64,000 nt of DNA from a virus. A program made the translations under genes and the position numbers. Each line of letters starts with the position of its first letter. Position 1 is the first letter of the stretch. Where the stretch lies: the IMG/VR virus record IMGVR_UViG_3300045988_170068; one strand, 5' to 3'. Shown piece after piece: positions 2,561 through 20,574 of this stretch. A model generated the notes under the pieces. The model ran no database searches. It worked only from the letters and a program-made list of their open reading frames with translations, and was not told where the DNA came from.

Positions 2561-3967
2561 ATGAAACTATTGAAAATAACTGCTAATATTGATGAAAATG
2601 ATTTCGAATTAAATAACCCTGAACAGGAATTTACATCAGAGAACACATCAATAAACAAGAACAAGCTTCCTGCAGTTTATCGTTTGATAAATATACCTGA
2701 AGGATCTGTAGGAATTGATTTTGGTGGCGGAAAATGGGATACCGCTGTCGAATACATCCGAGACCTAGGAGCCACACTTTGTGTTTACGACCCGTATAAC
2801 AGAACTGCTCAGCACAACAGAGAAATGCTTAAAACACTAAAAGCAAATGGCGGAGCTGATTGGGCTGTAAACTCAAATGTTCTGAACGTTATCAAGGAAC
2901 CAGAAGCAAGACAAAGTGTTCTAAGAAACATTTCTAAGATAACTAAATCTGGCGCCCCTATTTATATTACAGTCTACGAAGGTAGAGGAGACGCAAAGGA
3001 AGGTCCAACAAAATCTGGTTACCAGCTTAACAGAAAGACTCAAGATTATCTAGAAGAAATTCAAGAAGTCTTCCCAGATGCAAAGAGAAAAGGCAAGCTG
3101 ATTGTTGCACACAATGTTAAGTCAGCAAGTTCTTCTAAAAATGTTAATTCGTCTGAAAAAATTCGCCCTATCGATGAATTAAATGATGTAACAGATCAAC
3201 TTAGAGACGACCTGATTCAGAAACTTATTGATGTGATGACAGGACCAAATTTCGGATTTCCAAGAAATGATGTTCTTGATTATTCAAGAGTAGATATTAG
3301 ATTTGATGACGATGAAAACAGGATTGAAGTTGAAGTTGGAGCAGAAGTTAGCTACGACGGTCTAATGCAGATTGCTCAAGAGCTTGATCCTATCATTGAG
3401 TCGTATGATCATGGTGCTTATTTTGATGCAGAAGATGCAGGATTGCTATTAGCAGTTATTCCTTATGAGTCATTAAGAAAGCATACAGATGTTAATTCAG
3501 CTGTTGACGTTCCAGAACCTTCATTAGATCCTACTGAATACGATGATCCTGAGGAAGGTGAAGAAACAGTTGAAGTTGAATGTGACATCAATCAACTTGA
3601 AATAAAAGTTGACGAAGACGGATCATGGGAGTATCAAAGAGATGATTTCCTCGACGAAATGCTTACTGCTGAAGATGAGCTTACTTCCGAAGAGTATGAT
3701 GTATACGTTCGAGACAGAAACGGCTTGATTGAAGACTTTGATTCAATTGTAGAACCTAACATACCTGGAGTACCTGGAACTTATTTAATTTCCTGTTATG
3801 TGAAGATGGTTTATGATGTAACAGGAGTAGAAATTGTAAGTGAATATCAAGGTAAAGACGAAGACGGTGACCCTATAATTGATGAGGATTACTACACCGG
3901 AAATGCTGATGTAGAGTTCAACAGAAATGAAAGCTACATCACAAACTTCTATTCAGAAGAGATCTAA
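2561..3967 (+). CDS. putative class I SAM-methyltransferase-like N-terminal domain fused to a long acidic region
   Basis: GIDFGGGKWD (motif I-like), CVYDPY (motif II-like) and VNSNVLNVI. The remaining ~280 aa are D/E-rich. Assignment rests on motifs only. Confidence 0.4.
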   Translation: MKLLKITANIDENDFELNNPEQEFTSENTSINKNKLPAVYRLINIPEGSVGIDFGGGKWDTAVEYIRDLGATLCVYDPYNRTAQHNREMLKTLKANGGADWAVNSNVLNVIKEPEARQSVLRNISKITKSGAPIYITVYEGRGDAKEGPTKSGYQLNRKTQDYLEEIQEVFPDAKRKGKLIVAHNVKSASSSKNVNSSEKIRPIDELNDVTDQLRDDLIQKLIDVMTGPNFGFPRNDVLDYSRVDIRFDDDENRIEVEVGAEVSYDGLMQIAQELDPIIESYDHGAYFDAEDAGLLLAVIPYESLRKHTDVNSAVDVPEPSLDPTEYDDPEEGEETVEVECDINQLEIKVDEDGSWEYQRDDFLDEMLTAEDELTSEEYDVYVRDRNGLIEDFDSIVEPNIPGVPGTYLISCYVKMVYDVTGVEIVSEYQGKDEDGDPIIDEDYYTGNADVEFNRNESYITNFYSEEI

Positions 3968-11366: not shown

Positions 11367-11441
11367 TGGGGCGTAGCCAAGCGGAAAGGCAGTAGACTTT
11401 GACTCTATTATTCGCTGGTTCGAATCCAGCCGTCCCAGCCA
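11367..11441 (+). tRNA. tRNA-Gln(TTG)
   Basis: Hand-folded cloverleaf with U1:A72, anticodon loop CTTTGAC, T-loop TTCGAAT and encoded CCA. Confidence 0.85.
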
Positions 11442-11644
11442 GTGGTCAATTAGCTATTGACTGATGTCAGAGTAATCAGCTAACCTGACAAAGAATGAAA
11501 ATGATCGCTGAAAACTGCTACTAAAGGATGCGTCCTCGTTATTTACCTTAAGATAGGGGCTAATCATCTCCGGATTATTAGTTGATAATGAGTAGCGTGA
11601 CAATCTAAGCGGTAAGCTGATGAGTTAGTGTAGGAGGAATATAA

Positions 11645-12028
11645 ATGAAAATTCTTCGTCATCAAAACATAGAAGGAATGGCGAGAGTTGGATTTACTTC
11701 AGATAGCTACGAAGTATACGTCAATACAGACGATGGTGGAAAAATTCCTCACTTTCATTACAGACTGAAAAATGATTGGAATAAGTTTCACACATGTATA
11801 AAAATTGAAAGTCCTGGATATTTTCATCATACAGGCAAAGAAAGCGTGTTGAATTCTAAACAAATTAGATCGCTCATTCGATTTCTTAAGTCACCTGTAT
11901 CTCTATCACAATATAGTGAAAAATTTTCTAACAACTTTGAATTGATTATTTTTCTATGGAACATAAACAATTCGGATGTTATAGTTGATCCTGAAGCAAA
12001 AATTCCTGATTACTATCAACTAAATTAA
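11645..12028 (+). CDS. hypothetical protein (DUF4160-like PHFH motif?)
   Basis: GGAGG upstream of the ATG. GGKIPHFHY motif. Family assignment is weak. Confidence 0.45.
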   Translation: MKILRHQNIEGMARVGFTSDSYEVYVNTDDGGKIPHFHYRLKNDWNKFHTCIKIESPGYFHHTGKESVLNSKQIRSLIRFLKSPVSLSQYSEKFSNNFELIIFLWNINNSDVIVDPEAKIPDYYQLN

Positions 12029-12031
12029 ATC

Positions 12032-12053
12032 CAATCGTTATTAAGTATGTAGC
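12032..12053 (+). promoter_or_regulatory. 22-nt promoter-like box (CAATCGTTATTAAGTATGTAGC)
   Basis: Extended copy of the AATCGTTAT..ATGTAG box, 48 nt upstream of repeat unit C. Confidence 0.45.
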
Positions 12054-12101
12054 AGCTAATAAGCTGTAACATAAGGAGCTCACAATCCTGCCTAAGTAGA
12101 T

Positions 12102-12134
12102 GTCTCATTAGATATATAATGAGTGAATTGAAAT
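12102..12134 (+). repeat. solitary type I-C-like CRISPR repeat unit C
   Basis: GT-CTCATTA-GATATA-TAATGAG-TGAATTGAAAT: perfect 7-bp stem plus an 11-nt tail that differs by 1 nt from the I-C handle TGGATTGAAAT. Confidence 0.6.
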
Positions 12135-12235
12135 CGCACAAACTAGAAAAGAGTGAGTGGCAAGGAATATGCCAGGAATGATTCTAAGCTTGACATGCAA
12201 GTACAACCGGGTGAGAAACTAGTCCCGGTAAATAT

Positions 12236-12310
12236 TGTCAATTAGTTTATTAGGTAAAACATCATAGCTTAAGATATGATAAGTAGGTTCAAATCCTACA
12301 TTGACAGCCA
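12236..12310 (+). tRNA. tRNA-like gene with aberrant anticodon arm (8-nt loop GCTTAAGA; anticodon TAA?)
   Basis: Perfect acceptor stem TGTCAAT/ATTGACA. D arm GTTT/AAAC. T arm GTAGG-TTCAAAT-CCTAC. Encoded CCA. The only well-paired anticodon stem, TCATA/TATGA, leaves 8 loop nt and a 3-nt variable region. Confidence 0.5.
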
Positions 12311-12339
12311 TCGGTCATTGTTGACTGACGCCCTACCGA

Positions 12340-12378
12340 ATATGCTATCTTGGATCATCAGTAGCATATGCAGTTTTT
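12340..12378 (+). terminator. terminator-like hairpin
   Basis: ATATGCTA/TAGCATAT stem with a 14-nt loop, then GCAGTTTTT. Confidence 0.45.
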
Positions 12379-12430
12379 CAACTCTTTTTCTGCTCATCGA
12401 GTGTGTTGATAATAAAAGAGTCATATACAT

Positions 12431-12522
12431 GGCGCGATACCGAAGTGGTCACAACGGAGCGGTCTTGAAAACCGTAGGCGGTGATGAGCCGTCCGTGGGT
12501 TCGAATCCCACTCGCGCCGCCA
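12431..12522 (+). tRNA. tRNA-Ser(TGA)
   Basis: Acceptor GGCGCGA/TCGCGCC, anticodon loop CTTGAAA, long variable arm, T-loop TTCGAAT and encoded CCA. Confidence 0.9.
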
Positions 12523-12747
12523 TGCCTTTTCATATGCTGACATTAGATTGTCAAGTTGATGAAAGTGAAACCAACTATGCTGGCAGGTTGTCGACGGGTT
12601 GAAGAGCCGTAGAGTCTAAACTATTCTCCTCTATTCTAGAAAGAGTCGGAAAGCTAGGTCCCGTAGTAGCAGCCGAAAAGTATCCTAAAACGATAGGCGT
12701 TAAAACATGTTTTATAGGTGACAGCCTGGAAAGACAGGCAAATATAT

Positions 12748-12824
12748 TGCAGGGTGGACAAGTAGCTAAGTCGCCAGCTTCATGCGCTGGAAATCGCAGG
12801 TTCAAATCCTGCCCACTGCAACCA
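12748..12824 (+). tRNA. tRNA-Met-like (CAT) with bulged acceptor stem
   Basis: Anticodon arm CCAGC-TTCATGC-GCTGG and T arm GCAGG-TTCAAAT-CCTGC are clean. The acceptor TGCAGGG pairs with CC(A)CTGCA only if one A is bulged. The D-loop lacks GG. Confidence 0.5.
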
Positions 12825-13152
12825 TTGTCTACTGGTCACCATCTACATACGACAATCAAAACTGCATAGGAGATGGGATGGGCAACGGCAGCCCTGATAA
12901 GTGAAGCGATGTTCGAGTCATCAACCTGATCCTGTTCGACTCAGGCAGGGCATGGTGCAAAACTTATCAAGAGGAACTAAGTACCTGCCTCGCTTCGGAT
13001 AGCAAAGAAGGCGTTAGTAGTAATCGAAAAACTACTCGCGGTTACAGGGAGGGAGCGGCGTTATAGGTAAACCTCCTGGGTGTTCTGCTATCGTGCACCT
13101 TAGAAAGGCGAAGCTTTTCAGTTAGGACTAATCCGGCCAGATAGCAAAATAT

Positions 13153-13226
13153 GCGGATATAGTGTAACGGTAACATGCGACTCTTCCAAAGTCGTGTTGC
13201 GGGTTCGAGTCCCGTTATCCGCTCCA
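13153..13226 (+). tRNA. tRNA-Gly(TCC)
   Basis: Acceptor GCGGATA/TATCCGC, anticodon loop CTTCCAA, T-loop TTCGAGT and encoded CCA. Confidence 0.9.
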
Positions 13227-13244
13227 TAGAGGAAGGTGACAAAT

Positions 13245-13580
13245 ATGTCTGTTTATAAATGCCCAATTTGCGGAGGAAGAGGATTTGTTCCTTGCGGATT
13301 CTATTCAAGTCAAACATATGATGGAAGCTCAGTGACTAATTCTACTTCAAACGAAGTTTGTAGAAGCTGTCATGGTAGAGGAATCGTATTTGATGAATTC
13401 TTAGGATCAACTTCAAATAGTATTCATAGATGTTGCAGTAATTGTGAAATGAACGATGGTTTGGTTTATACATCTAATCCCCCTAAGTACAGATGTACTT
13501 TATCTGGTTATTTCAATGAAGGAACACATGTATGCAATCTAGATGATATTTTGTCAAATGGAAATAACCAATCTAAATAA
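13245..13580 (+). CDS. Cys-rich protein with DnaJ-type CxxCxGxG zinc-finger repeats
   Basis: CPICGGRGFV and CRSCHGRGIV. ATG 13245 is preceded by GGAAGGTGA. Confidence 0.5.
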   Translation: MSVYKCPICGGRGFVPCGFYSSQTYDGSSVTNSTSNEVCRSCHGRGIVFDEFLGSTSNSIHRCCSNCEMNDGLVYTSNPPKYRCTLSGYFNEGTHVCNLDDILSNGNNQSK

Positions 13581-13625
13581 GTTGATACTCGGTAGGGCGC
13601 TGCGGTGTGCTTGACCGTGTGTTTC

Positions 13626-13661
13626 CGTCCAGGTGTTGGCGCACCTGGACGCTTTCTTTTT
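13626..13661 (+). terminator. rho-independent terminator
   Basis: 10-bp GC-rich stem CGTCCAGGTG/CACCTGGACG followed by CTTTCTTTTT. Confidence 0.8.
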
Positions 13662-13668
13662 CTATCTA

Positions 13669-13692
13669 GTAAATTATTAACGAATGATTAAG
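13669..13692 (+). promoter_or_regulatory. 24-nt box GTAAATTATTAACGAATGATTAAG (copy 1)
   Basis: Identical 24-mer at 59339-59362. Both copies lie just upstream of TTGACT -35 elements. Confidence 0.5.
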
Positions 13693-13696
13693 ACTA

Positions 13697-13725
13697 TTGA
13701 CTTTTCACAAGAATCGTTATATAAT
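13697..13725 (+). promoter_or_regulatory. sigma-A-type promoter (TTGACT-17-TATAAT)
   Basis: -35 at 13697-13702, -10 at 13720-13725, 17-nt spacer. The spacer and -10 contain the AATCGTTAT box. Confidence 0.65.
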
Positions 13726-13778
13726 ATGTACATAAGTCAGCCAACACATCAAAAAGCTTCAAAGCTAAGGAGAACAAA

Positions 13779-14009
13779 ATGAACGGATACATTATCAAAG
13801 CTACATACCTCACCGGTCCGAACACAGGAAGATCTTATTTCCTTCAAAAAGCGCTTGAAAGAAGCAACATGCTTGAACACGTATTAGAGAAGAGATACAG
13901 AGAGTATCAATCTAAAAACGGGTACAATGTATCGAAATACATGATCAACGAATTGATGAAATACACACCGTATTTCGTCAAAACTGTTCACAATTCGGAT
14001 GTTCACTGA
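13779..14009 (+). CDS. hypothetical protein
   Basis: 76-aa ORF with AAGGAG upstream of the ATG. Confidence 0.5.
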   Translation: MNGYIIKATYLTGPNTGRSYFLQKALERSNMLEHVLEKRYREYQSKNGYNVSKYMINELMKYTPYFVKTVHNSDVH

Positions 14010-14022
14010 GGAGGTATTCATA

Positions 14023-14295
14023 ATGATCATCAATTCTCGTTTTGAAGCAAGAAAGTCTGTTGAGCATAGTTTCGAGCTTGCGTCCAAGCTTCATATGACT
14101 GTCATCAATGTCTTTCATAAGGACTTGATTACAGGTGAAATTGTTCTCACTGATATGTTCAGCCACGATAGTATTCAAGCCGTTACATGGAGAGACAATT
14201 ACCTTGAATCGTTAAAGAAGCTAGAGGTACCTTACATTTGCTATGTGGGAGATCATTTCACAGAAGCATCTGGCTACTTAGACTTTGAGGAGTGA
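14023..14295 (+). CDS. hypothetical protein
   Basis: ATG 14023 lies 7-8 nt after GAGGAGG. The track start at 13999 lacks an SD. Confidence 0.5.
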   Translation: MIINSRFEARKSVEHSFELASKLHMTVINVFHKDLITGEIVLTDMFSHDSIQAVTWRDNYLESLKKLEVPYICYVGDHFTEASGYLDFEE

Positions 14296-14300
14296 CAATC

Positions 14301-14597
14301 ATGGATAGAAAAGTTTTTGAAGCTTTATCTTCTGCAAATAAATTGATCAACCATCAACTTGATTGTCAAAAGGCCGCTATTCTTGATATAAAAAAGGCCA
14401 TTGAAGAAACATCGAAAGCTTTCAATATCACTTACAAACAGGGCCGCAGTGAAGGATTTGAATCCGAAACTATTGAAGACACAGCAGGAATATATGCTCT
14501 GCTTGTTGGAGCAAAATCTGAAATCGAATGTGCTGTTTCTAAACTTGAGGAAGCTAAGAACATGATGCCCAATTTTGATAAAGGAAAGAATATATGA
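14301..14597 (+). CDS. hypothetical protein
   Basis: ATG 14301 follows GAGGAG. Confidence 0.5.
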   Translation: MDRKVFEALSSANKLINHQLDCQKAAILDIKKAIEETSKAFNITYKQGRSEGFESETIEDTAGIYALLVGAKSEIECAVSKLEEAKNMMPNFDKGKNI

Positions 14598-14989
14598 AAC
14601 GAATAATCAAGAAATCGGCTGTAATCGGGATGGCTAAAGAACCGTCAAGAGGTGTTTTTTGGATAGTTGATGGAAAAGTCCTGTCATTTCCTTTTTACAA
14701 TGACATAACTTCTCCCGGCGTTGCTAAATCCGGATTGACTTACAACCACAAAAATTTGTGGCCCGATGTTAAACCTAAAGGATGCAATAAACCGTATAAT
14801 TACTACCCTCGTGGACGAGTGGAGCTAGGAAAGAAAAATCCTATCATATATGTAAATCCTAACTTCGATAAATATGATTTAGCAGAAGTTAGAAAGGATT
14901 TTGGACTTATCAATGAGCCTAAAGTAGTATTTGATAATTCAGATCATTACAAATGTTATCTAGATGACGGATGGAAGCCAGATAAATAA
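14594..14989 (+). CDS. hypothetical protein (FWIVDG...YYPRGRV motifs)
   Basis: 131-aa ORF coupled to the upstream gene (ATGA). I cannot name the family. Confidence 0.5.
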   Translation: MKRIIKKSAVIGMAKEPSRGVFWIVDGKVLSFPFYNDITSPGVAKSGLTYNHKNLWPDVKPKGCNKPYNYYPRGRVELGKKNPIIYVNPNFDKYDLAEVRKDFGLINEPKVVFDNSDHYKCYLDDGWKPDK

Positions 14990-15011
14990 CAATCGTTATA
15001 TAAAATGTAGT
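14990..15011 (+). promoter_or_regulatory. 22-nt promoter-like box (CAATCGTTATATAAAATGTAGT)
   Basis: Extended box ending 10 nt before tRNA-Leu(TAA). Confidence 0.5.
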
Positions 15012-15021
15012 AATCAAATTT

Positions 15022-15106
15022 GCTGGTGTGGTGGAACAGGCAGACACAGGGGACTTAAAATCCCTCGGAGAAATCCTTACGAGTTCGAATCTCGTCACCA
15101 GCACCA
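15022..15106 (+). tRNA. tRNA-Leu(TAA)
   Basis: Acceptor GCTGGTG/CACCAGC, anticodon loop CTTAAAA, long variable arm, T-loop TTCGAAT and encoded CCA. Confidence 0.9.
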
Positions 15107-15108
15107 CT

Positions 15109-15140
15109 GTCGTAGTCAAATTGATTACGTGGATTGAAAC
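15109..15140 (+). repeat. solitary type I-C-like CRISPR repeat unit A
   Basis: GT-CGTAGTC-AAATT-GATTACG-TGGATTGAAAC, 32 nt. It has a 5' GTCG, a 7-bp stem (one G-U) and the tail CGTGGATTGAAAC, as in canonical I-C repeats. Begins 2 nt after the tRNA CCA. Confidence 0.7.
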
Positions 15141-15160
15141 GAATCCCGTCACCAGCACCA
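15141..15160 (+). repeat. 20-nt duplicate of the tRNA-Leu(TAA) 3' end, directly abutting repeat unit A
   Basis: GAATCCCGTCACCAGCACCA versus 15087-15106 GAATCTCGTCACCAGCACCA: 19 of 20 identical. Confidence 0.85.
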
Positions 15161-16134
15161 AATGAGGGTTTGTCCTCAAGTAATGCTACTGAAAGTGCAT
15201 CCTTACGGTGGAGGTATTGGTTAACCGTTATTAGATTATTGTAAAATACAATAGAAAATAAAAGCGAGGTTCAATTCAACAGTAGTTCAATTTTGTTAAA
15301 TGAATTACTTTTGATGGTCCGGTACGATTCCGGAGGGATTGTCTTCATTCCTAACGCTTAGACCTATCTTTTCTATATAGCTGGCCACTATTCTGCCAAT
15401 CGACGGATTGGATGAGGTTTCGACCATCAGATAAACGGCTGAAAATGTATAGGCGTTTACTGCTTAACGAAATGAAGCGGGCTGTTGTTCATCTCAGGAT
15501 AAGAAGATGGCGTGCCAGCCGACATTGTTAGCCTATTTCGGTAGGTATTCGGTTAGAATAAGGAATGCTACTTATTCGGGAGCTAAATTGAATGTGCATC
15601 CTTCTGAAGTTGGAGTCTCGAAGATAACGTTTCTGAGAGATAGATTTTAAGTTAGTACTTAGAATTGAGGTTAAACTTGTCAGCTCCTAAAAGTTAATAT
15701 CGAGCAAACTCACCATAAAGTGTTCTAGCTGCTAATCTAAAAGAGAATGAGATGATTAGAAGGATTGAGCGAATCTAGATGCTCGTTATTATATTTGCCA
15801 TCTGCTGGTCCTACACAGCAGTGAGGATGGTAGGACATCCAATAACTAAGCGAACAGCCGAAATAGCGCCGGACACCTCGCCCGTTGAGGAGGGAATTTG
15901 AACAAAAAGGTGAGATATGTTCACACCAGAACATAAGGGCATATGGAATGGTGGAAATGCTTACTAAACCAAGCTGCCAGGTTATCTGATAAGAAGTCAG
16001 GATTTGAGGCAGATAAGTGATAGAATGAAGTAATCTCATTTGACTTTGAGAAGAACCTTTCATATTATCACTTAATGAGTTCTATGCGTTGCAAACACTT
16101 CTCTCATTCGGGAAAGAAAAGAAGGGTTAGACAT
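15161..16134 (+). ncRNA. ~1 kb ORF-free, structure-rich block between tRNA genes (candidate large ncRNA and/or ORF-less intron-like element)
   Basis: No plus-strand ORF. Long-range pairs TGATGGTC 15312-15319 with GACCATCA 15422-15429. Pseudoknot-like CTGCTG-GTCCTAC-A-CAGCAG...GTAGGAC near 15800-15838. An 18-mer is shared with the polA intron. Confidence 0.4.
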
Positions 16135-16209
16135 GGCGCCTTGGTCAAGTGGTTAAGACACGGCCCTTTCACGGCTGTAACACGGGTTCGAGTCCCGTAG
16201 GCGTCACCA
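16135..16209 (+). tRNA. tRNA-Glu(TTC)
   Basis: Acceptor GGCGCCT/AGGCGTC, anticodon loop CTTTCAC, T-loop TTCGAGT and encoded CCA. Confidence 0.9.
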
Positions 16210-16300
16210 TCACATCATATAAGATGTGTTAAGTGTGATATATGGTAACAGATTCCGACCTAAGCGCACGGGTCTTCTAGAGGCCTTCGGAATCGAATAT

Positions 16301-16376
16301 CCGGGTGTAGCTCAGATGGTAGAGCGCGTGGTTTGGGACCACGAGGCCGCTGGTTCGAAACCAGTCACTCGGACCA
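16301..16376 (+). tRNA. tRNA-Pro(TGG)
   Basis: C1:G72 acceptor CCGGGTG/CACTCGG, anticodon loop TTTGGGA, T-loop TTCGAAA and encoded CCA. Confidence 0.9.
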
Positions 16377-16406
16377 TTTTTCACCCAACAGGAATGGGGT
16401 AGTAGT

Positions 16407-16949
16407 ATGAAGAAATTGATTAGACGAATGCCTGTAGTGAAAAAGTATATTGATATTATAGTCAATATTGACGACTACAAAAATGATTCATCTATTGCTG
16501 CTAATTCATTCACAAAAGCAAGAACATTTCAACCATCCGTTAAGAAAAAGTTCAAGATTTCAGATGAAGCGTTAAATATGTATACTGATTTCTTAAATTG
16601 CATACTCGAAGTAATTGTTAGAAACGGATTGAAAATATCTAAGCAATATCAATCTAAGAAAGGATACACATACTATATTCAGGTTGATCATATTGGATTA
16701 GTTGACGGAACAAAAATAAAGTACGAAATAACATTCAGGATAAACAATAATGTTAATCCTACTTTGAACAAAGGGCCTAAATTTGAGGGCAGCAGACAAA
16801 TGGTCATGCCTATAATGAAAAATATCAAGCTTGGAAAATTTGATCCTGCTGTCTACTCCGAAGCAATGTTTCATCTAAATAAAGTTTGTAAAGGTATACG
16901 AGAAGACAACAGAGATATTCTAGTAAACGAAGACATCTATTTCAATTGA
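16407..16949 (+). CDS. hypothetical protein
   Basis: 180-aa ORF between tRNA clusters with a weak SD. Confidence 0.5.
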   Translation: MKKLIRRMPVVKKYIDIIVNIDDYKNDSSIAANSFTKARTFQPSVKKKFKISDEALNMYTDFLNCILEVIVRNGLKISKQYQSKKGYTYYIQVDHIGLVDGTKIKYEITFRINNNVNPTLNKGPKFEGSRQMVMPIMKNIKLGKFDPAVYSEAMFHLNKVCKGIREDNRDILVNEDIYFN

Positions 16950-16957
16950 AATATGTA

Positions 16958-16979
16958 GAATCGTTATATAACATGTAGG
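16958..16979 (+). promoter_or_regulatory. 22-nt promoter-like box (GAATCGTTATATAACATGTAGG)
   Basis: Extended box followed by about 100 nt of ORF-free hairpin-containing sequence. Confidence 0.45.
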
Positions 16980-17080
16980 CGGCATCCATCTCGGATACAA
17001 TACTACAACGTAGATAGAGAAAACATTTTCTCTGTAATGAGAGGTAAGATACTCTTGAAGTAGCCTAAAAAAATAAATTA

Positions 17081-17102
17081 GCATCGTTATATATCATGTA
17101 GC
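17081..17102 (+). promoter_or_regulatory. 22-nt promoter-like box (GCATCGTTATATATCATGTAGC)
   Basis: Extended box ending 9-10 nt before tRNA-Thr. The leader CATCAAATAT resembles TAATCAAATT upstream of tRNA-Leu(TAA). Confidence 0.5.
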
Positions 17103-17111
17103 ATCAAATAT

Positions 17112-17187
17112 GCTGGATTAGCTCAGTTGGCAGAGCGCGTGATTTGTAATCTCGAGGTCAAGGGTTCGAGTCCCTTATCCAGCTCCA
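17112..17187 (+). tRNA. tRNA-Thr(TGT)
   Basis: Acceptor GCTGGAT/ATCCAGC, anticodon loop TTTGTAA (one U-U mismatch in the stem), T-loop TTCGAGT and encoded CCA. Confidence 0.85.
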
Positions 17188-17189
17188 TT

Positions 17190-17221
17190 GCCACAATTTA
17201 TTAGATTGTGCGGATTGAAAC
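17190..17221 (+). repeat. solitary type I-C-like CRISPR repeat unit B
   Basis: GC-CACAATT-TATTA-GATTGTG-CGGATTGAAAC, 32 nt, with the same 2+7+5+7+11 layout as unit A. Begins 2 nt after the tRNA-Thr CCA. Confidence 0.65.
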
Positions 17222-17276
17222 CATCTCATCTCCTTCCTGATCCAGTTTCTGGTCTGGATAAAAACCATGTAAATAT

Positions 17277-17352
17277 GCTGATGTAGCTCAACAGGTTAGA
17301 GCCGGCGACTTATAATCGTCAGATTCGAGTTCGACTCTCGGCGTCAGTACCA
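17277..17352 (+). tRNA. tRNA-Ile(TAT)
   Basis: Acceptor GCTGATG/CGTCAGT (two G-U pairs), anticodon loop CTTATAA, T-loop TTCGACT and encoded CCA. Confidence 0.8.
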
Positions 17353-17545
17353 GGGGTAACCAAACTACCTTAATCGTTTGGTGAGGACTCAAGTTACTCG
17401 AGTTAGGTCAGCTTGACATCCAATAGTGAGGACCTACGACAGGTGAGAATGACGGCTTAGTCCTTTCTTGAATAAACAGAACCTGACCCATTGGCCAAAA
17501 GGGTGAACGCTGCTTCAAGGTAAAGAAAGGCAACAAATTCTATAT

Positions 17546-17622
17546 GGGAGCATAGCTCAGTTGGTTAGAGCGCATGACTGTTAATCATGATGTCGAAGGT
17601 TCGAGTCCTTCTGTTCCCGCCA
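17546..17622 (+). tRNA. tRNA-Asn(GTT)
   Basis: Acceptor GGGAGCA/TGTTCCC, anticodon loop CTGTTAA, T-loop TTCGAGT and encoded CCA. Confidence 0.9.
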
Positions 17623-18170
17623 GCGCCTATATCAGTCTAGGTCTTGAAATGATATAGAGACCAATGCATTATCTTTTTAGAAAGGTAGTGTATCTGATGA
17701 AAAAGAGATCATCAACTCTCGGCGAATTATAACTTGACGAATTTTTCTTTTGAAACAAAGAAGTAGCAGGTTCGTCTCTGCGCTTAATCTACTGAACTGC
17801 AATGTTGATGTAAGCAGTAATTAGGTTCCCAAACCAATTCAGGGAGATTAAGAAAAAGTTTGCTTATTTAGTAGAAAGAGGGTTGGAGGGGCACAGCAAG
17901 TAGAATAAAAGGACCTATCCAGAATGCCAGGATTGACATCATAAAATGATGTCAATGAGAGCATCAGTATTAGACCACGGTGAAGCGATGTGATGATGAT
18001 AGGAATTGGGACTATCTAATTTCATCTAATGCCGGTATACATCTGGTTGTGTAGGTAGGCAACAAATTTGAAAGCTATTACAGGATGTGCCAAGGAGTAG
18101 AAGTAATCACCTCTGTCTACTGTGTATTTCTTCTAAATAAGTTCAACTTTTTTATTAAGGAGTTTGAAAA
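17623..18170 (+). ncRNA. ~550-nt ORF-free hairpin-rich block (candidate structured ncRNA)
   Basis: No ORF of 60 aa or more on either strand. Perfect 10-bp hairpin TTGACATCAT-AAA-ATGATGTCAA at 17932-17954. CTATATCA/TGATATAG near 17626-17662. Confidence 0.3.
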
Positions 18171-18386
18171 ATGAAAACAATCACTTTTATCAGTTATGAT
18201 AAATATCCAAAAACATTTAGAAAGTTTCACATTTTTAAGAAGCGTTTTTCTTCGTTATCAGATATTGCTAGATTCCTGCAAGTTTCTAGTAAAATCTATT
18301 TGAAAAATCCGATGAACGAGTTGTCTAAAGACGAACTAAGAATTCTTTCAATGAAAGTTCGATCGTTAAATAAAATGAAGGTGTAG
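18171..18386 (+). CDS. hypothetical protein
   Basis: 71-aa ORF with AAGGAG upstream. Its last 10 nt overlap the start of tRNA-Lys. Confidence 0.4.
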   Translation: MKTITFISYDKYPKTFRKFHIFKKRFSSLSDIARFLQVSSKIYLKNPMNELSKDELRILSMKVRSLNKMKV

Positions 18387-18452
18387 CTCAGTAGGTAGAG
18401 CACCTGCCTTTTAAGCAGGCTGTCAAGAGTTCGAATCTCTTCACCTTCACCA
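18377..18452 (+). tRNA. tRNA-Lys(TTT)
   Basis: Acceptor GAAGGTG/CACCTTC, anticodon loop CTTTTAA, T-loop TTCGAAT and encoded CCA. Confidence 0.9.
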
Positions 18453-18458
18453 AAATAT

Positions 18459-18543
18459 GCACCTGTGGTGGAACTGGCAGACACGCTTGACTTAGGATCA
18501 AGTGCCTTCAGGTTTAAGGGTTCGAGTCCCTTCAGGTGCACCA
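18459..18543 (+). tRNA. tRNA-Leu(TAG)
   Basis: Acceptor GCACCTG/CAGGTGC, anticodon loop CTTAGGA, long variable arm and encoded CCA. Confidence 0.9.
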
Positions 18544-18548
18544 TATAT

Positions 18549-18587
18549 GGAGGATTAGCTCAGCTGGTTAGAGCAACTGACTTACAT
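18549..18587 (+). pseudogene. 5' fragment of a disrupted tRNA-Val(TAC) gene
   Basis: GGAGGAT-TA-GCTC-AGCTGGTTA-GAGC-A-ACTGA-CTTACAT. No complementary TCAGT follows. Confidence 0.7.
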
Positions 18588-18630
18588 CTTTAGTGTAACC
18601 CAAATAGTAATTACCTAATATAAATGTGAG

Positions 18631-19455
18631 GTGATAAATTTGAGCAAACTTAAAGATGTAATGTCAAGAATATCAGATATGACGAACGGGAGGTATTCAA
18701 TAGCAGGAGAATTCAAAGGATATGATCAACCCTTATCAATAAGATGCAATATTCATAAACAAGTATTTGATATAAAACACGCACAATATTTACTTGAGGT
18801 CTGTAAAAATCCTAACAAAATATTCTATGGATGCAAAGAATGTAGAAAAGAAAAGGACGGCACAATTGAATTAAATTGCGAAATTTGTGGAAAGAAAATT
18901 ATCAGACCTAGAGGTTGGGCAAATGGAAACAAAAGCAAATTTGCTTTCTGTTGTAGAGAACATAAGAATATTGCCCAAAGGTTAGAATCAGGATTTGGTG
19001 ATATGATTCCATCGCATTATGGAACAAGAAAAGATTACCGATACATAGCTTTCAGAATATATCCGCATAAATGCGCAGTTTGCGGCTGGGACGAGGATGA
19101 AAGAATATTGGAAGTTCATCATAAAGATATGAACAGAGAAAACAATTCCGACGATAACTTAATTATCCTTTGCCCAAATTGCCATTCAAAAATATCAAAA
19201 GGATTGTATATGCTGCAAGGTAATTTACTTGTTGATCCCGATGATAACTACTTAAAGTTCTTTAGTTTGCATACTTACAGAACTAAATCTCCTGGTATGT
19301 CTTGTAAAGTAATTTGCGTAGAAGATGGCTTAGTTTTCAAGTCAATAACAGAATGTGCAAATCACTACAGAGTATCGGATACAACTATCAATTATGCTAC
19401 TGTATCTGATAATAAATTATGCAAATCCTTAGATAAGCATTTTGAGAGGATATAA
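18631..19455 (+). CDS. HNH homing endonuclease
   Basis: HHKDMNRENNSDDNLIILCPNCH. Several CxxC pairs. C-terminal VFKSITECANHY DNA-binding-like module. The start is GTG 18631, TTG 18640 or ATG 18661. Confidence 0.8.
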   Translation: MINLSKLKDVMSRISDMTNGRYSIAGEFKGYDQPLSIRCNIHKQVFDIKHAQYLLEVCKNPNKIFYGCKECRKEKDGTIELNCEICGKKIIRPRGWANGNKSKFAFCCREHKNIAQRLESGFGDMIPSHYGTRKDYRYIAFRIYPHKCAVCGWDEDERILEVHHKDMNRENNSDDNLIILCPNCHSKISKGLYMLQGNLLVDPDDNYLKFFSLHTYRTKSPGMSCKVICVEDGLVFKSITECANHYRVSDTTINYATVSDNKLCKSLDKHFERI

Positions 19456-19457
19456 AT

Positions 19458-19532
19458 GCACCGTGTCCTCGGTGGTCTGAGGGCTTGGCTTACATCCAAG
19501 TACATTGAGTTCGATTCTCAAACGGTGTACCA
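19458..19532 (+). tRNA. tRNA-Val(TAC), divergent replacement copy
   Basis: Acceptor GCACCGT/ACGGTGT (G1-U72), anticodon arm CTTGG-CTTACAT-CCAAG, T arm TTGAG-TTCGATT-CTCAA and encoded CCA. Starts 2 nt after the HNH stop. Confidence 0.8.
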
Positions 19533-19559
19533 AAAGTTCGAATCTTGCATTCTCCACCA
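19533..19559 (+). pseudogene. 3' fragment of the disrupted tRNA-Val gene
   Basis: ..GTTCGAATCTTGC-ATTCTCC-A-CCA. ATTCTCC pairs with the GGAGGAT acceptor strand at 18549. The 5' strand of the T stem is missing. Confidence 0.6.
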
Positions 19560-19565
19560 TTATTT

Positions 19566-19642
19566 GGCCAAGTAGTTCAGTTGGTTAGAACGCCAGCCTG
19601 TCACGCTGGAGGTCGAGGGTTCGAGCCCCTTCTTGGTCGCCA
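19566..19642 (+). tRNA. tRNA-Asp(GTC)
   Basis: Acceptor GGCCAAG/CTTGGTC, anticodon loop CTGTCAC, T-loop TTCGAGC and encoded CCA. Confidence 0.9.
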
Positions 19643-19647
19643 TATTT

Positions 19648-19722
19648 GGGTCCGTATTTCAATGGGAGAAAGCTTCTTTTGCACGGAAGAGGTTGCGTGT
19701 TCGAATCACGTCGGATCCACCA
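19648..19722 (+). tRNA. tRNA-Ala(TGC)
   Basis: Acceptor GGGTCCG/CGGATCC with the G3-U70 identity pair, anticodon loop TTTGCAC and encoded CCA. Confidence 0.9.
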
Positions 19723-19843
19723 TTTGAGACTTCAGCCAAGTTGGCTAGAAAGTCGTATTAAATGACATACAATGAGACGATACCAAGACTTTAGTTCGTT
19801 ACAGAGCGGTGACTGAATGTCAAATCCCTTATGTCATTTATCT

Positions 19844-19920
19844 GGGCCTTTAGCTCAGTTGGTTAGAGCCTCCGGCTCATAACCGGATCGTCCCGGGTTC
19901 GAATCCCCGAAGGCCCACCA
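19844..19920 (+). tRNA. tRNA-Met(CAT) (elongator or Ile2-type)
   Basis: Acceptor GGGCCTT/AAGGCCC, anticodon loop CTCATAA, one C-C mismatch in the T stem and encoded CCA. Confidence 0.8.
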
Positions 19921-20074
19921 TAATTGGTACAACACGACTGTAACGGCTCCCGCGGTTTAGAGTTGTATCCCGTTTCTTAGTTGAAGCGTGAAGTGTCAAG
20001 AGAGCCTCACCAGACGAGCCATATGGGCACCACCTAGCGGTGAAAAGATATGATAAGCTCGTCAATCATTAAAT

Positions 20075-20151
20075 ACCTCAGTAGCTCAGCTGGATAGAGC
20101 AACTGCCTTCTAAGCAGTAGGCCACAGGTTCGAGTCCTGTTTGAGGTGCCA
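20075..20151 (+). tRNA. tRNA-Arg(TCT)
   Basis: Acceptor ACCTCAG/TTGAGGT, anticodon loop CTTCTAA, T-loop TTCGAGT and encoded CCA. Confidence 0.85.
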
Positions 20152-20224
20152 GAAAGCACATTAAATAACGTGGAATAAAAATAGAGGTTGTGCTGGGACG
20201 TTGAGCCTCTTGTAAAAACAATAA

Positions 20225-20293
20225 GATGCTTTACGCCAGTAGGTAGACGGCTCTTGTACAGAGAAGCCGCTGGTTCGATTCCAGCAATCATCA
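20225..20293 (+). pseudogene. degenerate tRNA-like sequence (GTA/Tyr-like loop), no CCA
   Basis: Good T arm GCTGG-TTCGATT-CCAGC. Acceptor GATGCTT/AATCATC has one mismatch. The D and anticodon arms pair poorly, and only 44 nt precede the T stem. Confidence 0.3.
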
Positions 20294-20574
20294 AAAGCTG
20301 CTCTGATTGGGTCCATGCTTAATCGAAAGTTGCAGGAAGATAAAAGCCTGCACGCTAATCTTCATCACACAGAGAAGAGAAAGGACAGCAGTAACAATCT
20401 GTCAAAGATCAGATAAGACAGAAAACTCCATCGAGCAAGTAGAGATAGCGCTGTCTTGAAAGCTCAAAAATATCCTATCTGCAGTAGGATATTAAATCTA
20501 GCCCTCCGTGACAACACGGATGGCTTCACTATGAATCGTTATAGTACATATATCGATACAGGGGGGATATCAAT

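Follow-up and report, generated by a model that had tools for sequence, protein, structure and literature searches.

A phage tRNA-Val(TAC) gene interrupted by an HNH endonuclease cassette that carries a divergent tRNA-Val(TAC) of its own

We analyzed a stretch of 64,000 nucleotides (nt) from the IMG/VR virus record IMGVR_UViG_3300045988_170068, which is called the window in the following and whose positions are counted from its first letter. It has a G+C content of 36.6% and contains a phage transfer RNA (tRNA) cluster, for which ARAGORN reported 17 tRNAs at 11367–20151. Between the cluster genes for tRNA-Leu(TAG) on the left (18459–18543) and tRNA-Asp(GTC) on the right (19566–19642), the resident tRNA-Val(TAC) gene at 18549–19559 is interrupted by a cassette of about 940 base pairs (bp), which consists of a short leader, a gene for an HNH endonuclease and a complete, unusual tRNA-Val(TAC). 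We consider it likely that this is a free-standing HNH homing cassette which targets the tRNA-Val(TAC) gene of the phage, and that its insertion is made harmless by the divergent spare tRNA-Val(TAC) rather than by splicing. At the level of sequence, this reading is carried by the anatomy of the locus, the polarity of events among close relatives, the horizontal spread of the cassette, the retention of the inner tRNA (called the cargo tRNA from here on) and the recurrence of the layout in distant HNH lineages. An earlier note, made from the letters of this DNA, had proposed intron-less homing that destroys the resident tRNA-Val and supplies a replacement, and this proposal gains support from relatives with an intact gene, from cargo tRNAs kept after loss of the HNH gene and from recurrence at about 40% identity of the nuclease.

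All elements of the locus are located on the plus strand. The 5′ part of the resident (outer) tRNA-Val(TAC) gene at 18549–18587, read directly as GGAGGAT TA GCTC AGCTGGTTA GAGC A ACTGA CTTACAT, holds the acceptor 5′ strand, the D arm, the 5′ strand of the anticodon stem and the anticodon loop CTTACAT, and it is collinear with positions 1–38 of the intact tRNA-Val genes of two related contigs (L007, 2457–2533; L003, 6947–7023 on the minus strand). This part is now a pseudogene fragment and presumably serves as the left homology arm for homing. It is followed by CTTTAG (18588–18593), a decayed resident remnant of the anticodon-stem 3′ strand and the first variable-loop bases, which read TCAGTAG in the intact gene. 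The cassette leader of 46 nt (18594–18639) begins with TGTAACCC and contains the motif ACCTAATATA at 18613–18622 and the Shine-Dalgarno sequence GAGGTG at 18628–18633. The HNH homing-endonuclease gene then extends from a probable TTG start at 18640 to 19455, with a GTG at 18631 as the alternative start of the listed open reading frame (ORF). Only two bases (19456–19457) separate its stop codon from the cargo tRNA-Val(TAC), which has a length of 75 nt including CCA (19458–19532), a cloverleaf fold and a match to the Rfam tRNA model. A junction of three bases, AAA (19533–19535), connects the cargo tRNA to the resident 3′ remnant at 19536–19559, which was read directly as GTTCGAATCTTGC ATTCTCC A CCA and aligned to the intact allele. 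This remnant, the presumed right homology arm, comprises the last base of the T-stem 5′ strand, the T loop, the T-stem 3′ strand, the acceptor 3′ strand ATTCTCC, A73 and CCA; its ATTCTCC pairs with GGAGGAT of the 5′ part over 7 bp with one G-U pair. The remnant differs among the genomes (GTTCGAATCTTGC, GTTCGAGTCCTAC or GTTCTAGTCATAC). The AAA junction is found in the window and in the related contigs L001, L002, L021 and L042 and is replaced in L157 and L240 by CTG, which is part of another resident T stem; therefore, the cassette ends at the CCA of the cargo tRNA.

These boundaries refine the picture drawn in the earlier note. The tRNA 5′ half it had recognized at 18549–18587 is borne out by the collinearity with the intact genes, and the HNH gene it had listed at 18631–19455 between the two fragments is present as described, with TTG 18640 as the likelier start. 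It had placed the 3′ strand at 19533–19559, of which the matching acceptor strand and CCA hold, whereas the first three bases belong to the junction. Its estimate of 10–15 missing nt was correct in that a loss has occurred, but only 8 nt (GTTCGTAG) are deleted and the rest is represented by the decayed CTTTAG. Upstream of the nuclease gene, a leader motif (ACCTTATATA) about 10 nt before the Shine-Dalgarno sequence is conserved across HNH lineages of about 40% identity (the window, L058, L055, L060 and L158) and may represent a promoter or regulatory element. A promoter scan of the cassette revealed no sigma-70 promoter or terminator above the shuffled expectation.

A 17-nt probe taken from the outer anticodon arm and a scan of IMG/VR proteins led to contigs closely related to the window, and a metagenome scan and cluster look-up added two more. 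The interval between tRNA-Leu(TAG) and tRNA-Asp(GTC) occurs in four states among these close relatives. The intact state is represented by L003 and L007, in which ARAGORN detects an uninterrupted tRNA-Val(TAC) of 77 nt with the sequence GGAGGATTAGCTCAGCTGGTAGAGCAACTGACTTACATTCAGTAGGTTCGTAGGTTCGAGTCCTACATTCTCCACCA and which contain no HNH gene. The earlier note had proposed looking for relatives with an intact tRNA-Val at this position, and these two contigs, with the same Leu(TAG) and Asp(GTC) flanks, establish that both fragments are the ends of a single gene; a chance resemblance of the fragments was rejected because of this uninterrupted resident gene at the same position. The cassette is present in the window, L001, L002 and L157. 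In a third state, the HNH gene is present in inactivated form, as in L240 (ENA ERZ19693515, 147,043 bp), where a change of TAT GGA to TAT TGA creates a stop at codon 64. Finally, L021 and L042 are devoid of the resident 5′ half; of the HNH ORF only the final 20 nt persist, together with the cargo tRNA and the 3′ remnant of the resident gene, and the loss of the HNH gene by deletion made use of a short ATA microhomology. Because L001 equals the intact allele with GTTCGTAG (8 nt at positions ~46–52, including four of the five T-stem 5′-strand bases) replaced by the cassette, the polarity can be read unambiguously: the cassette-bearing state arose from the intact one by insertion, and the inactivated and deleted states arose from the cassette-bearing one by decay. 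The left junction reads TCAGTAG in L001, CTTTAG in the window, L157 and L240, and ATTTAA in L002, which is consistent with an older, decayed donor sequence that was co-converted with tracts ending at different points. An assembly artefact was rejected, since the layout is present in independent IMG, ENA and Logan assemblies.

The cassette is more similar between genomes than the DNA around it. Comparing the window with L002, the HNH genes are 98.2% identical and the cargo tRNAs 100%, whereas the flanks show identities of 84.9% upstream (Lys–Leu) and 88–96% downstream. Moreover, the same cassette is found in three outer tRNA-Val contexts. The first (window and L001) is characterized by the D loop GGTTAGAG and the T arm GAATCTTGC, and the second (L002, L021 and L042) by GG-TAGAG and GAGTCCTAC, of which GG-TAGAG is not visible in L021 and L042 after loss of the 5′ half and GAGTCCTAC is decayed in L042. 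In the third (L157 and L240), the anticodon stem differs (GCGCTTGC TTTACAT) and the 3′ remnant, CTGGTTCGAGTCCAGTTGTTCCCACCA, directly abuts the CCA of the cargo tRNA. Because of this higher similarity compared to the flanks and the three different outer contexts, we conclude that the cassette has moved horizontally.

A search of 5.8 billion proteins yielded six further full-length HNH lineages with 39–46% identity. Three of them show the same order of an outer Val(TAC) 5′ half, a leader, the HNH gene, a complete Val(TAC) and an outer 3′ remnant (L055 of P0005, L058/L059 of P0004 and L158 of P0006). The outer 5′ half stops at the anticodon loop in all of these, and the acceptor strand of the 3′ remnant matches the outer 5′ strand in L058/L059 and L158; in L055, the contig end leaves the last three bases. 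In a fourth lineage (L054, P0003), the HNH gene lies between the 5′ fragment and a complete Val(TAC), and a 3′ remnant is not clearly recognizable. Counting the window, the nested arrangement of one Val(TAC) gene within another thus occurs in five HNH lineages of about 40% identity, and because the genes around the distant loci differ, the link between the nuclease and tRNA-Val(TAC) is a conserved feature.

Two further observations were made at the distant loci. The HNH ORF overlaps the downstream tRNA by 10 nt in L055 (964–973), L058 (1180–1189), L121–L129, L090 and L105, and its stop codon is provided by the TAG at tRNA positions 8–10. With the stop inside the tRNA, processing by RNase P would strip the stop codon from the messenger RNA (mRNA) of the nuclease, which could act as a brake on its expression. 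Elsewhere in L055, at 3047–3161, a tRNA 5′ half (AGGGACGTAGCTCAACTGGTAGAGC...) and a matching 3′ end (...GTTCAAATCCTGTCGTCCCTACCA) span 115 nt from start to end, which suggests a tRNA gene with an insertion of about 40 nt near the anticodon; this could be a small intron or another disruption.

The cargo tRNA folds at minimum free energy into a perfect cloverleaf (−28 kcal/mol, z = −3.0). Its acceptor stem comprises 7 bp, its 7-nt anticodon loop CTTACAT contains U33, and its T loop reads TTCGATT. The tRNA ends with A73 and an encoded CCA, as is also encoded by all other tRNAs of the cluster, and exceeds the gathering score of the Rfam tRNA model RF00005 (31.6 versus 29 bits). The D arm departs from the usual form: the tRNA carries G8, G14 and U21 in place of the bases U8, A14 and A21 known for tertiary interactions, and a 6-bp D stem around a 4-nt loop is possible. 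Because of this D arm, the tRNA-Sec model scored highest in a permissive Rfam scan (37.5 bits, which is below its gathering score of 47). The complete tRNA-Val with the same anticodon loop that the earlier note had seen at 19458–19532 is therefore upheld as a complete cloverleaf and corrected to a structurally non-canonical one. Inner and outer tRNA have only the anticodon loop and the T-loop core in common.

Several results suggest that the cargo tRNA is functional. It is identical at 75 of 75 positions in seven genomes, even where the HNH gene is dead or deleted, and these 0/75 variable sites compare to 4.7% in the HNH gene (P about 0.03 for the seven genomes). As identical copies are uninformative for compensatory changes, distant lineages were used instead: across the cargo tRNAs of L054, L055, L058 and the window together with two resident tRNA-Val genes, all 20 of the 20 scored pairs were always paired, 15 of them with double changes, a degree of pair conservation reached by none of 500 shuffles. 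The anticodon TAC was kept in every lineage compared. Furthermore, the cargo tRNA is the sole tRNA-Val candidate in the 64-kilobase (kb) window, and GTA and GTT make up 85% of the valine codons in its 19 longest ORFs. The cargo tRNA is therefore probably functional, and it would be expected to be expressed and charged with valine. A scan of IMG/VR for its anticodon arm returned 45 loci and no donor lineage, this D arm being confined to the same phage group and the remaining loci being ordinary tRNA-Val genes; in L054, L055 and L058, the D arm of the cargo Val tRNA is an ordinary one. We also observed a G1-U72 wobble pair together with A73 and CCA in the cargo tRNAs of three Val lineages (window, 19458/19529; L054, 4823–4898; L055, 964–1038) and in a cargo Leu(TAG) of L003 (7964–8041, minus strand; see below), compared to G1-C72 in resident tRNA-Val.

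The HNH protein has 271 amino acids if started from TTG 18640, which follows the Shine-Dalgarno sequence GAGGTG after 6 nt, or 274 if started from GTG 18631. Residues 148–189 of the 274-residue ORF match the Pfam HNH domain PF01844 (28.3 bits compared to a cut-off of 21.4; 2e-6), the C-terminus weakly resembles the DNA-binding domain of I-TevI (PF20987, 0.014), and several PHROG HNH families were matched, with phrog_1271 as the best at 1.3e-17. Two N-terminal Cys/His clusters precede the HNH catalytic domain, and the family alignment revealed invariant residues H160, H161, N173 and H182 as well as CxxC pairs (271-residue numbering). Searches of domain libraries gave no match to a GIY-YIG domain, leaving HNH as the catalytic domain, and among solved structures the family profile matched merely the HNH motif of distant proteins (a group II maturase, McrA and IscB; E ≥ 0.003). 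The window, L001, L002 and L157 all retain an uninterrupted ORF, and 26 of its 38 variable sites are at third codon positions; the nuclease has therefore been under purifying selection recently. At the level of sequence, the gene has the hallmarks of a free-standing HNH homing endonuclease, whose product would be predicted to cleave DNA. The HNH protein cluster of P0001 comprises 56 members on contigs of about 147 kb from several assemblies. It includes the public record MAG TPA Siphoviridae sp. ctgN495, in which the HNH gene is annotated as two pieces (150 amino acids, 'NinG', and 56 amino acids), consistent with the nonsense allele of L240. Sample names among the related matches include human gut metagenomes.

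In the mechanism we propose, the HNH enzyme would cut or nick the intact tRNA-Val gene of a cassette-free phage during mixed infection, probably near the variable loop and T stem (positions ~45–53). The break would then be repaired from the cassette-bearing genome, using the resident 5′ piece (about 38–45 nt) and the 3′ remnant (about 24 nt plus the downstream tRNA-Asp) as homology arms. In this way, the leader, the HNH gene and the cargo tRNA would be copied in, and the resident gene would be left as two dead pieces. The cargo tRNA, which is divergent over the presumed target, should escape cutting and would take over the GUA and related valine codons. The HNH gene would then be free to decay, as seen in the nonsense and deletion alleles, and the net effect would be the replacement of the tRNA-Val allele. 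Our confidence in these single biochemical steps is lower than in the overall model.

Some of the results weigh against this interpretation. That the enzyme cuts the intact tRNA-Val gene and spares the cargo allele is something we infer from the alleles compared. The 'empty' alleles of L007 and L003 have an unusual variable loop of 6 nt (AGGTTC) at the presumed target and could represent resistance changes rather than naive, sensitive targets. Two of the distant lineages deviate from the nested layout: L056/L057 (P0002) contain an intact Val(TAC), the HNH gene and Ser(TGA) without any broken gene, and in L060 (P0007), a tRNA 3′ remnant and Asp(GTC) come after the HNH gene and a cargo Val is absent; the layout is common, not obligatory. 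The cargo tRNA is missing the near-universal U8 and A14 and passes the Rfam threshold by a margin of just 2.6 bits, and ARAGORN does not call it at default settings because of its atypical D arm. A check of both copies with tRNA finders, as suggested in the earlier note, thus led to the intact resident gene being called by ARAGORN in L007 and L003 and to the cargo tRNA being missed, yet scoring above the Rfam threshold. Finally, the close relatives are all metagenome assemblies, many of them from one sample (IMG 3300045988), and the counts of the four states are not equivalent to population frequencies. Apart from these points, we noted that in L056 (220–297), the intact Val gene adjoining the HNH gene has a variable loop of 7 nt (AGGTTTC), which might likewise be a resistance change rather than a naive target.

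Relatives of the nuclease are also associated with other tRNA genes. A profile scan of IMG/VR and the JGI metagenomes identified 160 loci with HNH relatives (L061–L140 and L157–L236), most of which are shorter (about 200 amino acids) and without the C-terminal domain. A tRNA gene is located at most 250 nt from the HNH gene in 133 of these 160 loci, the upstream neighbor being Ala(TGC) in 34, Pro(TGG) in 30 and Gln(TTG) in 10 of them, and the HNH sub-lineages look isotype-specific. A broken tRNA piece and an intact tRNA with the same anticodon lie beside the nuclease gene for Ala(TGC) in L186/L188, L108 and L228 and for Pro(TGG) in L099 and L190, and L065 has an HNH gene between two complete Ala(TGC) genes. 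Atypical D arms also occur in the cargo Ala(TGC) tRNAs of L186, L108, L228, L104 and L065. In L003, the neighboring tRNA-Leu(TAG) gene (8075–7035, minus strand) is broken in the same way by a different cassette, the order being a 6-nt 5′ stub (GCACCG), a complete 78-nt Leu(TAG) with a short variable arm, an ORF of 216 amino acids and a chimeric fragment that ends in the 3′ part of the resident Leu gene. The 216-residue protein has no match in Pfam, PHROGs, NCBIfam or PDB, and the sole route to its identification was via remote homologues carrying DUF559/Vsr-like and NUMOD3 domains. Homologues of 45% identity (L237, 1360–2240; L239, 1338–2166) are again found after a short-type Leu(TAG), in L237 with a tRNA 3′ remnant behind the ORF. 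These loci may belong to a general class of mobile elements in phage tRNA clusters, for which the name tRNA-replacing homing cassettes could be used: two or more unrelated nuclease families (zinc-finger HNH and Vsr/DUF559-like), with each lineage dedicated to one isotype (Val-TAC, Ala-TGC, Pro-TGG or Leu-TAG), would break the resident gene and install a divergent tRNA of the same anticodon. For a class of this generality, we see the case as evenly balanced.

The tRNA clusters contain further unusual alleles without a nuclease gene. The Thr(TGT) slot (window, 17112–17187) is occupied either by a canonical gene of 76 nt or by an 85-nt allele whose D arm is odd and whose variable arm is long, and the Ile(TAT) slot (window, 17277–17352) by a gene of 76 nt or by one of 95–96 nt with an extra arm of 21 nt, as seen in the relatives L007, L021, L001 and L042. 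These divergent alleles have the same anticodon within each slot, and the pairs may be relics of earlier replacements. A tRNA-like gene of 69–71 nt with a very short anticodon stem is present in the window (20225–20293), L003 (6188–6258, minus strand), L007 (3078–3146) and L021 (6018–6088). It reaches 38.5 bits with the Rfam tRNA model, is missed by ARAGORN in the window, and carries the anticodon GTA in the window and L021, TTA in L003, which would read the UAA stop codon, and GCA in L007. At 12236–12310 of the window, ARAGORN reports a tRNA without assigned identity, its 'anticodon' (ta) having two bases, and the same call was obtained at 69–143 of L021.

Four other explanations of the Val locus were weighed. 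Group I introns are known in bacterial tRNA genes and HNH ORFs are found within phage group I introns, as would suit an insert that acts as an intron, either self-splicing (group I or II) or removable in another way, after whose excision the outer pieces are rejoined into tRNA-Val. We assign next to no probability to this explanation. A search of 18000–20300 with cmscan against Rfam 15 at E ≤ 10 gave no match to intron families and only tRNA-type matches and noise, and the non-coding part of the insert, which amounts to the 46-nt leader and the tRNA alone, is too short for a ribozyme. As the 8 nt of GTTCGTAG are gone, precise excision would yield no tRNA; the window, L002, L157 and L240 show a decayed 3′ strand of the anticodon stem; and L021 and L042 have dropped the 5′ piece while keeping the cargo tRNA. 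Splicing of the fragments into a functional tRNA, an option left by the earlier note, is ruled out as far as can be judged from sequence by the deletion, the decayed junctions and the lack of a match to an Rfam intron model. Alternatively, an HNH gene with an unrelated target may have settled between tRNA genes, with illegitimate recombination among similar tRNAs producing the fragments. The tRNA clusters are indeed rich in short repeats, GTTCG occurs twice at the junction of the intact allele, the deletion in L021 and L042 proceeded via a microhomology, and further tRNA fragments and chimeras are found in these clusters. Such a scar would hardly recreate the nested Val(TAC) layout with different neighbors in five HNH lineages of about 40% identity, place one cassette in three resident tRNA-Val contexts or tie each sub-lineage to one isotype, as indicated by the upstream Ala(TGC), Pro(TGG) and Gln(TTG) genes, and we regard it as highly improbable.

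It is also very unlikely, if slightly less so, that the inner element is not a working tRNA at all, being instead a processing signal (RNase P or RNase Z) by which the HNH mRNA is released or kept in check, or else a pseudogene in decay, in a phage that tolerates the loss of tRNA-Val. The missing U8 and A14, the failure of ARAGORN to detect the element and its marginal Rfam score would fit such a role, and the stop codons inside the tRNA in related lineages, where processing would cut the mRNA, suggest regulatory coupling. However, the element shows no change at any of its 75 positions where the HNH gene is deleted or stopped, and because of this the cargo tRNA cannot be kept solely for the HNH mRNA; in addition, it retains the TAC anticodon in every lineage, stems maintained by compensatory changes, and A73 with an encoded CCA. 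The last explanation shares its mechanics with the one we favor and differs on why the cargo is present: the cargo tRNA would be the selected trait, because it escapes a tRNA-cleaving defence of the host or decodes better, and the HNH gene would be the vehicle driving it through the phage population, so that the unusual D arms would be adaptive and not merely tolerated. The unchanged cargo tRNA after HNH loss, the frequency of atypical D arms (in the Val of the window and the Ala(TGC) cargo tRNAs of five loci) and the canonical and non-canonical alleles in the Thr and Ile slots without a nuclease gene are in line with it, as is the report that phage tRNA loci act as anti-defence genes which are amplified by SegB (PMC13096335). 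A host defence or fitness effect was not identified in these data, no unusual D arm is seen in the cargo Val tRNAs of L054, L055 and L058, and neutral replacement explains the retention of the cargo equally well because the resident copy is destroyed. We therefore consider selection of the cargo as such unlikely, and favor a homing cassette which is rendered harmless by its spare tRNA-Val(TAC).

The homing cassette proposed here shares features with several known systems. SegB of phages T4 and T6 is a GIY-YIG endonuclease encoded in the tRNA cluster which cuts a T-arm motif of tRNA genes (PMC2330249) and accompanies tRNA genes widely, with no preference for an isotype (PMC13096335). Like the HNH gene, the SegB gene stands free within a phage tRNA cluster; the enzyme cuts the tRNA genes of relatives without it and thereby favors the inheritance of its own region (PMC2330249, PMC13096335). 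In contrast to the isotype-specific HNH lineages, SegB belongs to the GIY-YIG type, lies between intact tRNA genes and recognizes a generic T-arm motif; it has not been reported inside a broken tRNA gene or with a same-anticodon replacement, whereas the cassette contains the spare gene and is framed by its homology arms. The T4 endonucleases SegF, SegG and SegE as well as MobE represent intronless homing, in which a gene outside of any intron or intein cuts the allele lacking it, is inherited by co-conversion and has a resistant allele traveling along. They are located in intergenic spacers and leave their neighbors whole, while here the target gene is destroyed and its function is restored by a complete second copy in the mobile unit. 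The endonucleases of group I introns and inteins likewise use a conserved, useful gene as their site, have the insertion silenced and use the flanking 'exon' pieces as homology arms; they depend on RNA or protein splicing, unlike the gene replacement at the DNA level proposed here, with no ribozyme core and a broken gene that is never repaired. Islands and prophages with tRNA-inserting integrases also land in a tRNA gene and bring along sequence that keeps the tRNA functional. However, they employ a site-specific recombinase and duplicate an identical 3′ segment, as opposed to the proposed nuclease with homologous repair and a whole, divergent tRNA gene, and the 1-kb insert contains the HNH ORF and the tRNA but no integrase or attachment (att) repeats. 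The nrdA gene of phage Aeh1, which is split by mobE, and the 'fractured genes' with split inteins (PMC2677866) are further cases of a nuclease gene interrupting an important gene with retention of its function. The halves of those genes still make the product by subunit assembly or trans-splicing, whereas here the halves are dead and the spare gene would do the work.

The earlier note had stated that its author was not aware of any description of such an arrangement. In agreement with this, the full-text literature searched, which covers subscription journals thinly, did not describe any nuclease gene that lies inside a broken tRNA gene and comes with a spare of the same anticodon; this absence is not a proof. 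The nested, same-anticodon arrangement thus appears to be both recurrent and undescribed. Searches of 50,697 GenBank phage records by blastn and tblastn gave only generic tRNA similarity and three weak HNH matches. The DNA ligase of the phage is loosely placed near large Bacillota phages (about 33% identity), and a scan of genome contigs provided no clue to the host, yielding partial matches of 33–53% identity in metagenome bins of many phyla.

Homing endonuclease genes persist in conserved genes only if their insertion is harmless, and the known solutions to this problem are self-splicing introns and inteins. The cassette in the tRNA-Val(TAC) gene would represent a third solution, in which the destroyed gene is made good by a spare that the element brings along; such a copy is affordable because a tRNA gene has only about 75 bp. 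The empty, invaded, inactivated and deleted alleles at one site provide a population-level snapshot of a full homing cycle. They also point to a route for rapid allelic replacement of phage tRNAs, which may explain orphan tRNA halves and odd tRNAs that are missed or mislabelled by annotation pipelines, and the HNH family offers candidate nucleases with tRNA-isotype-specific DNA targets. If a general class of such cassettes exists, repeated invasion followed by loss of the nuclease would drive the turnover of tRNA alleles and account for many non-canonical tRNAs and orphan halves, and it could spread tRNA variants that are resistant to the tRNA-cleaving defences of hosts. Should the cargo tRNAs indeed resist host defences that target tRNAs, a selfish gene drive would be linked to the arms race between phages and their hosts.

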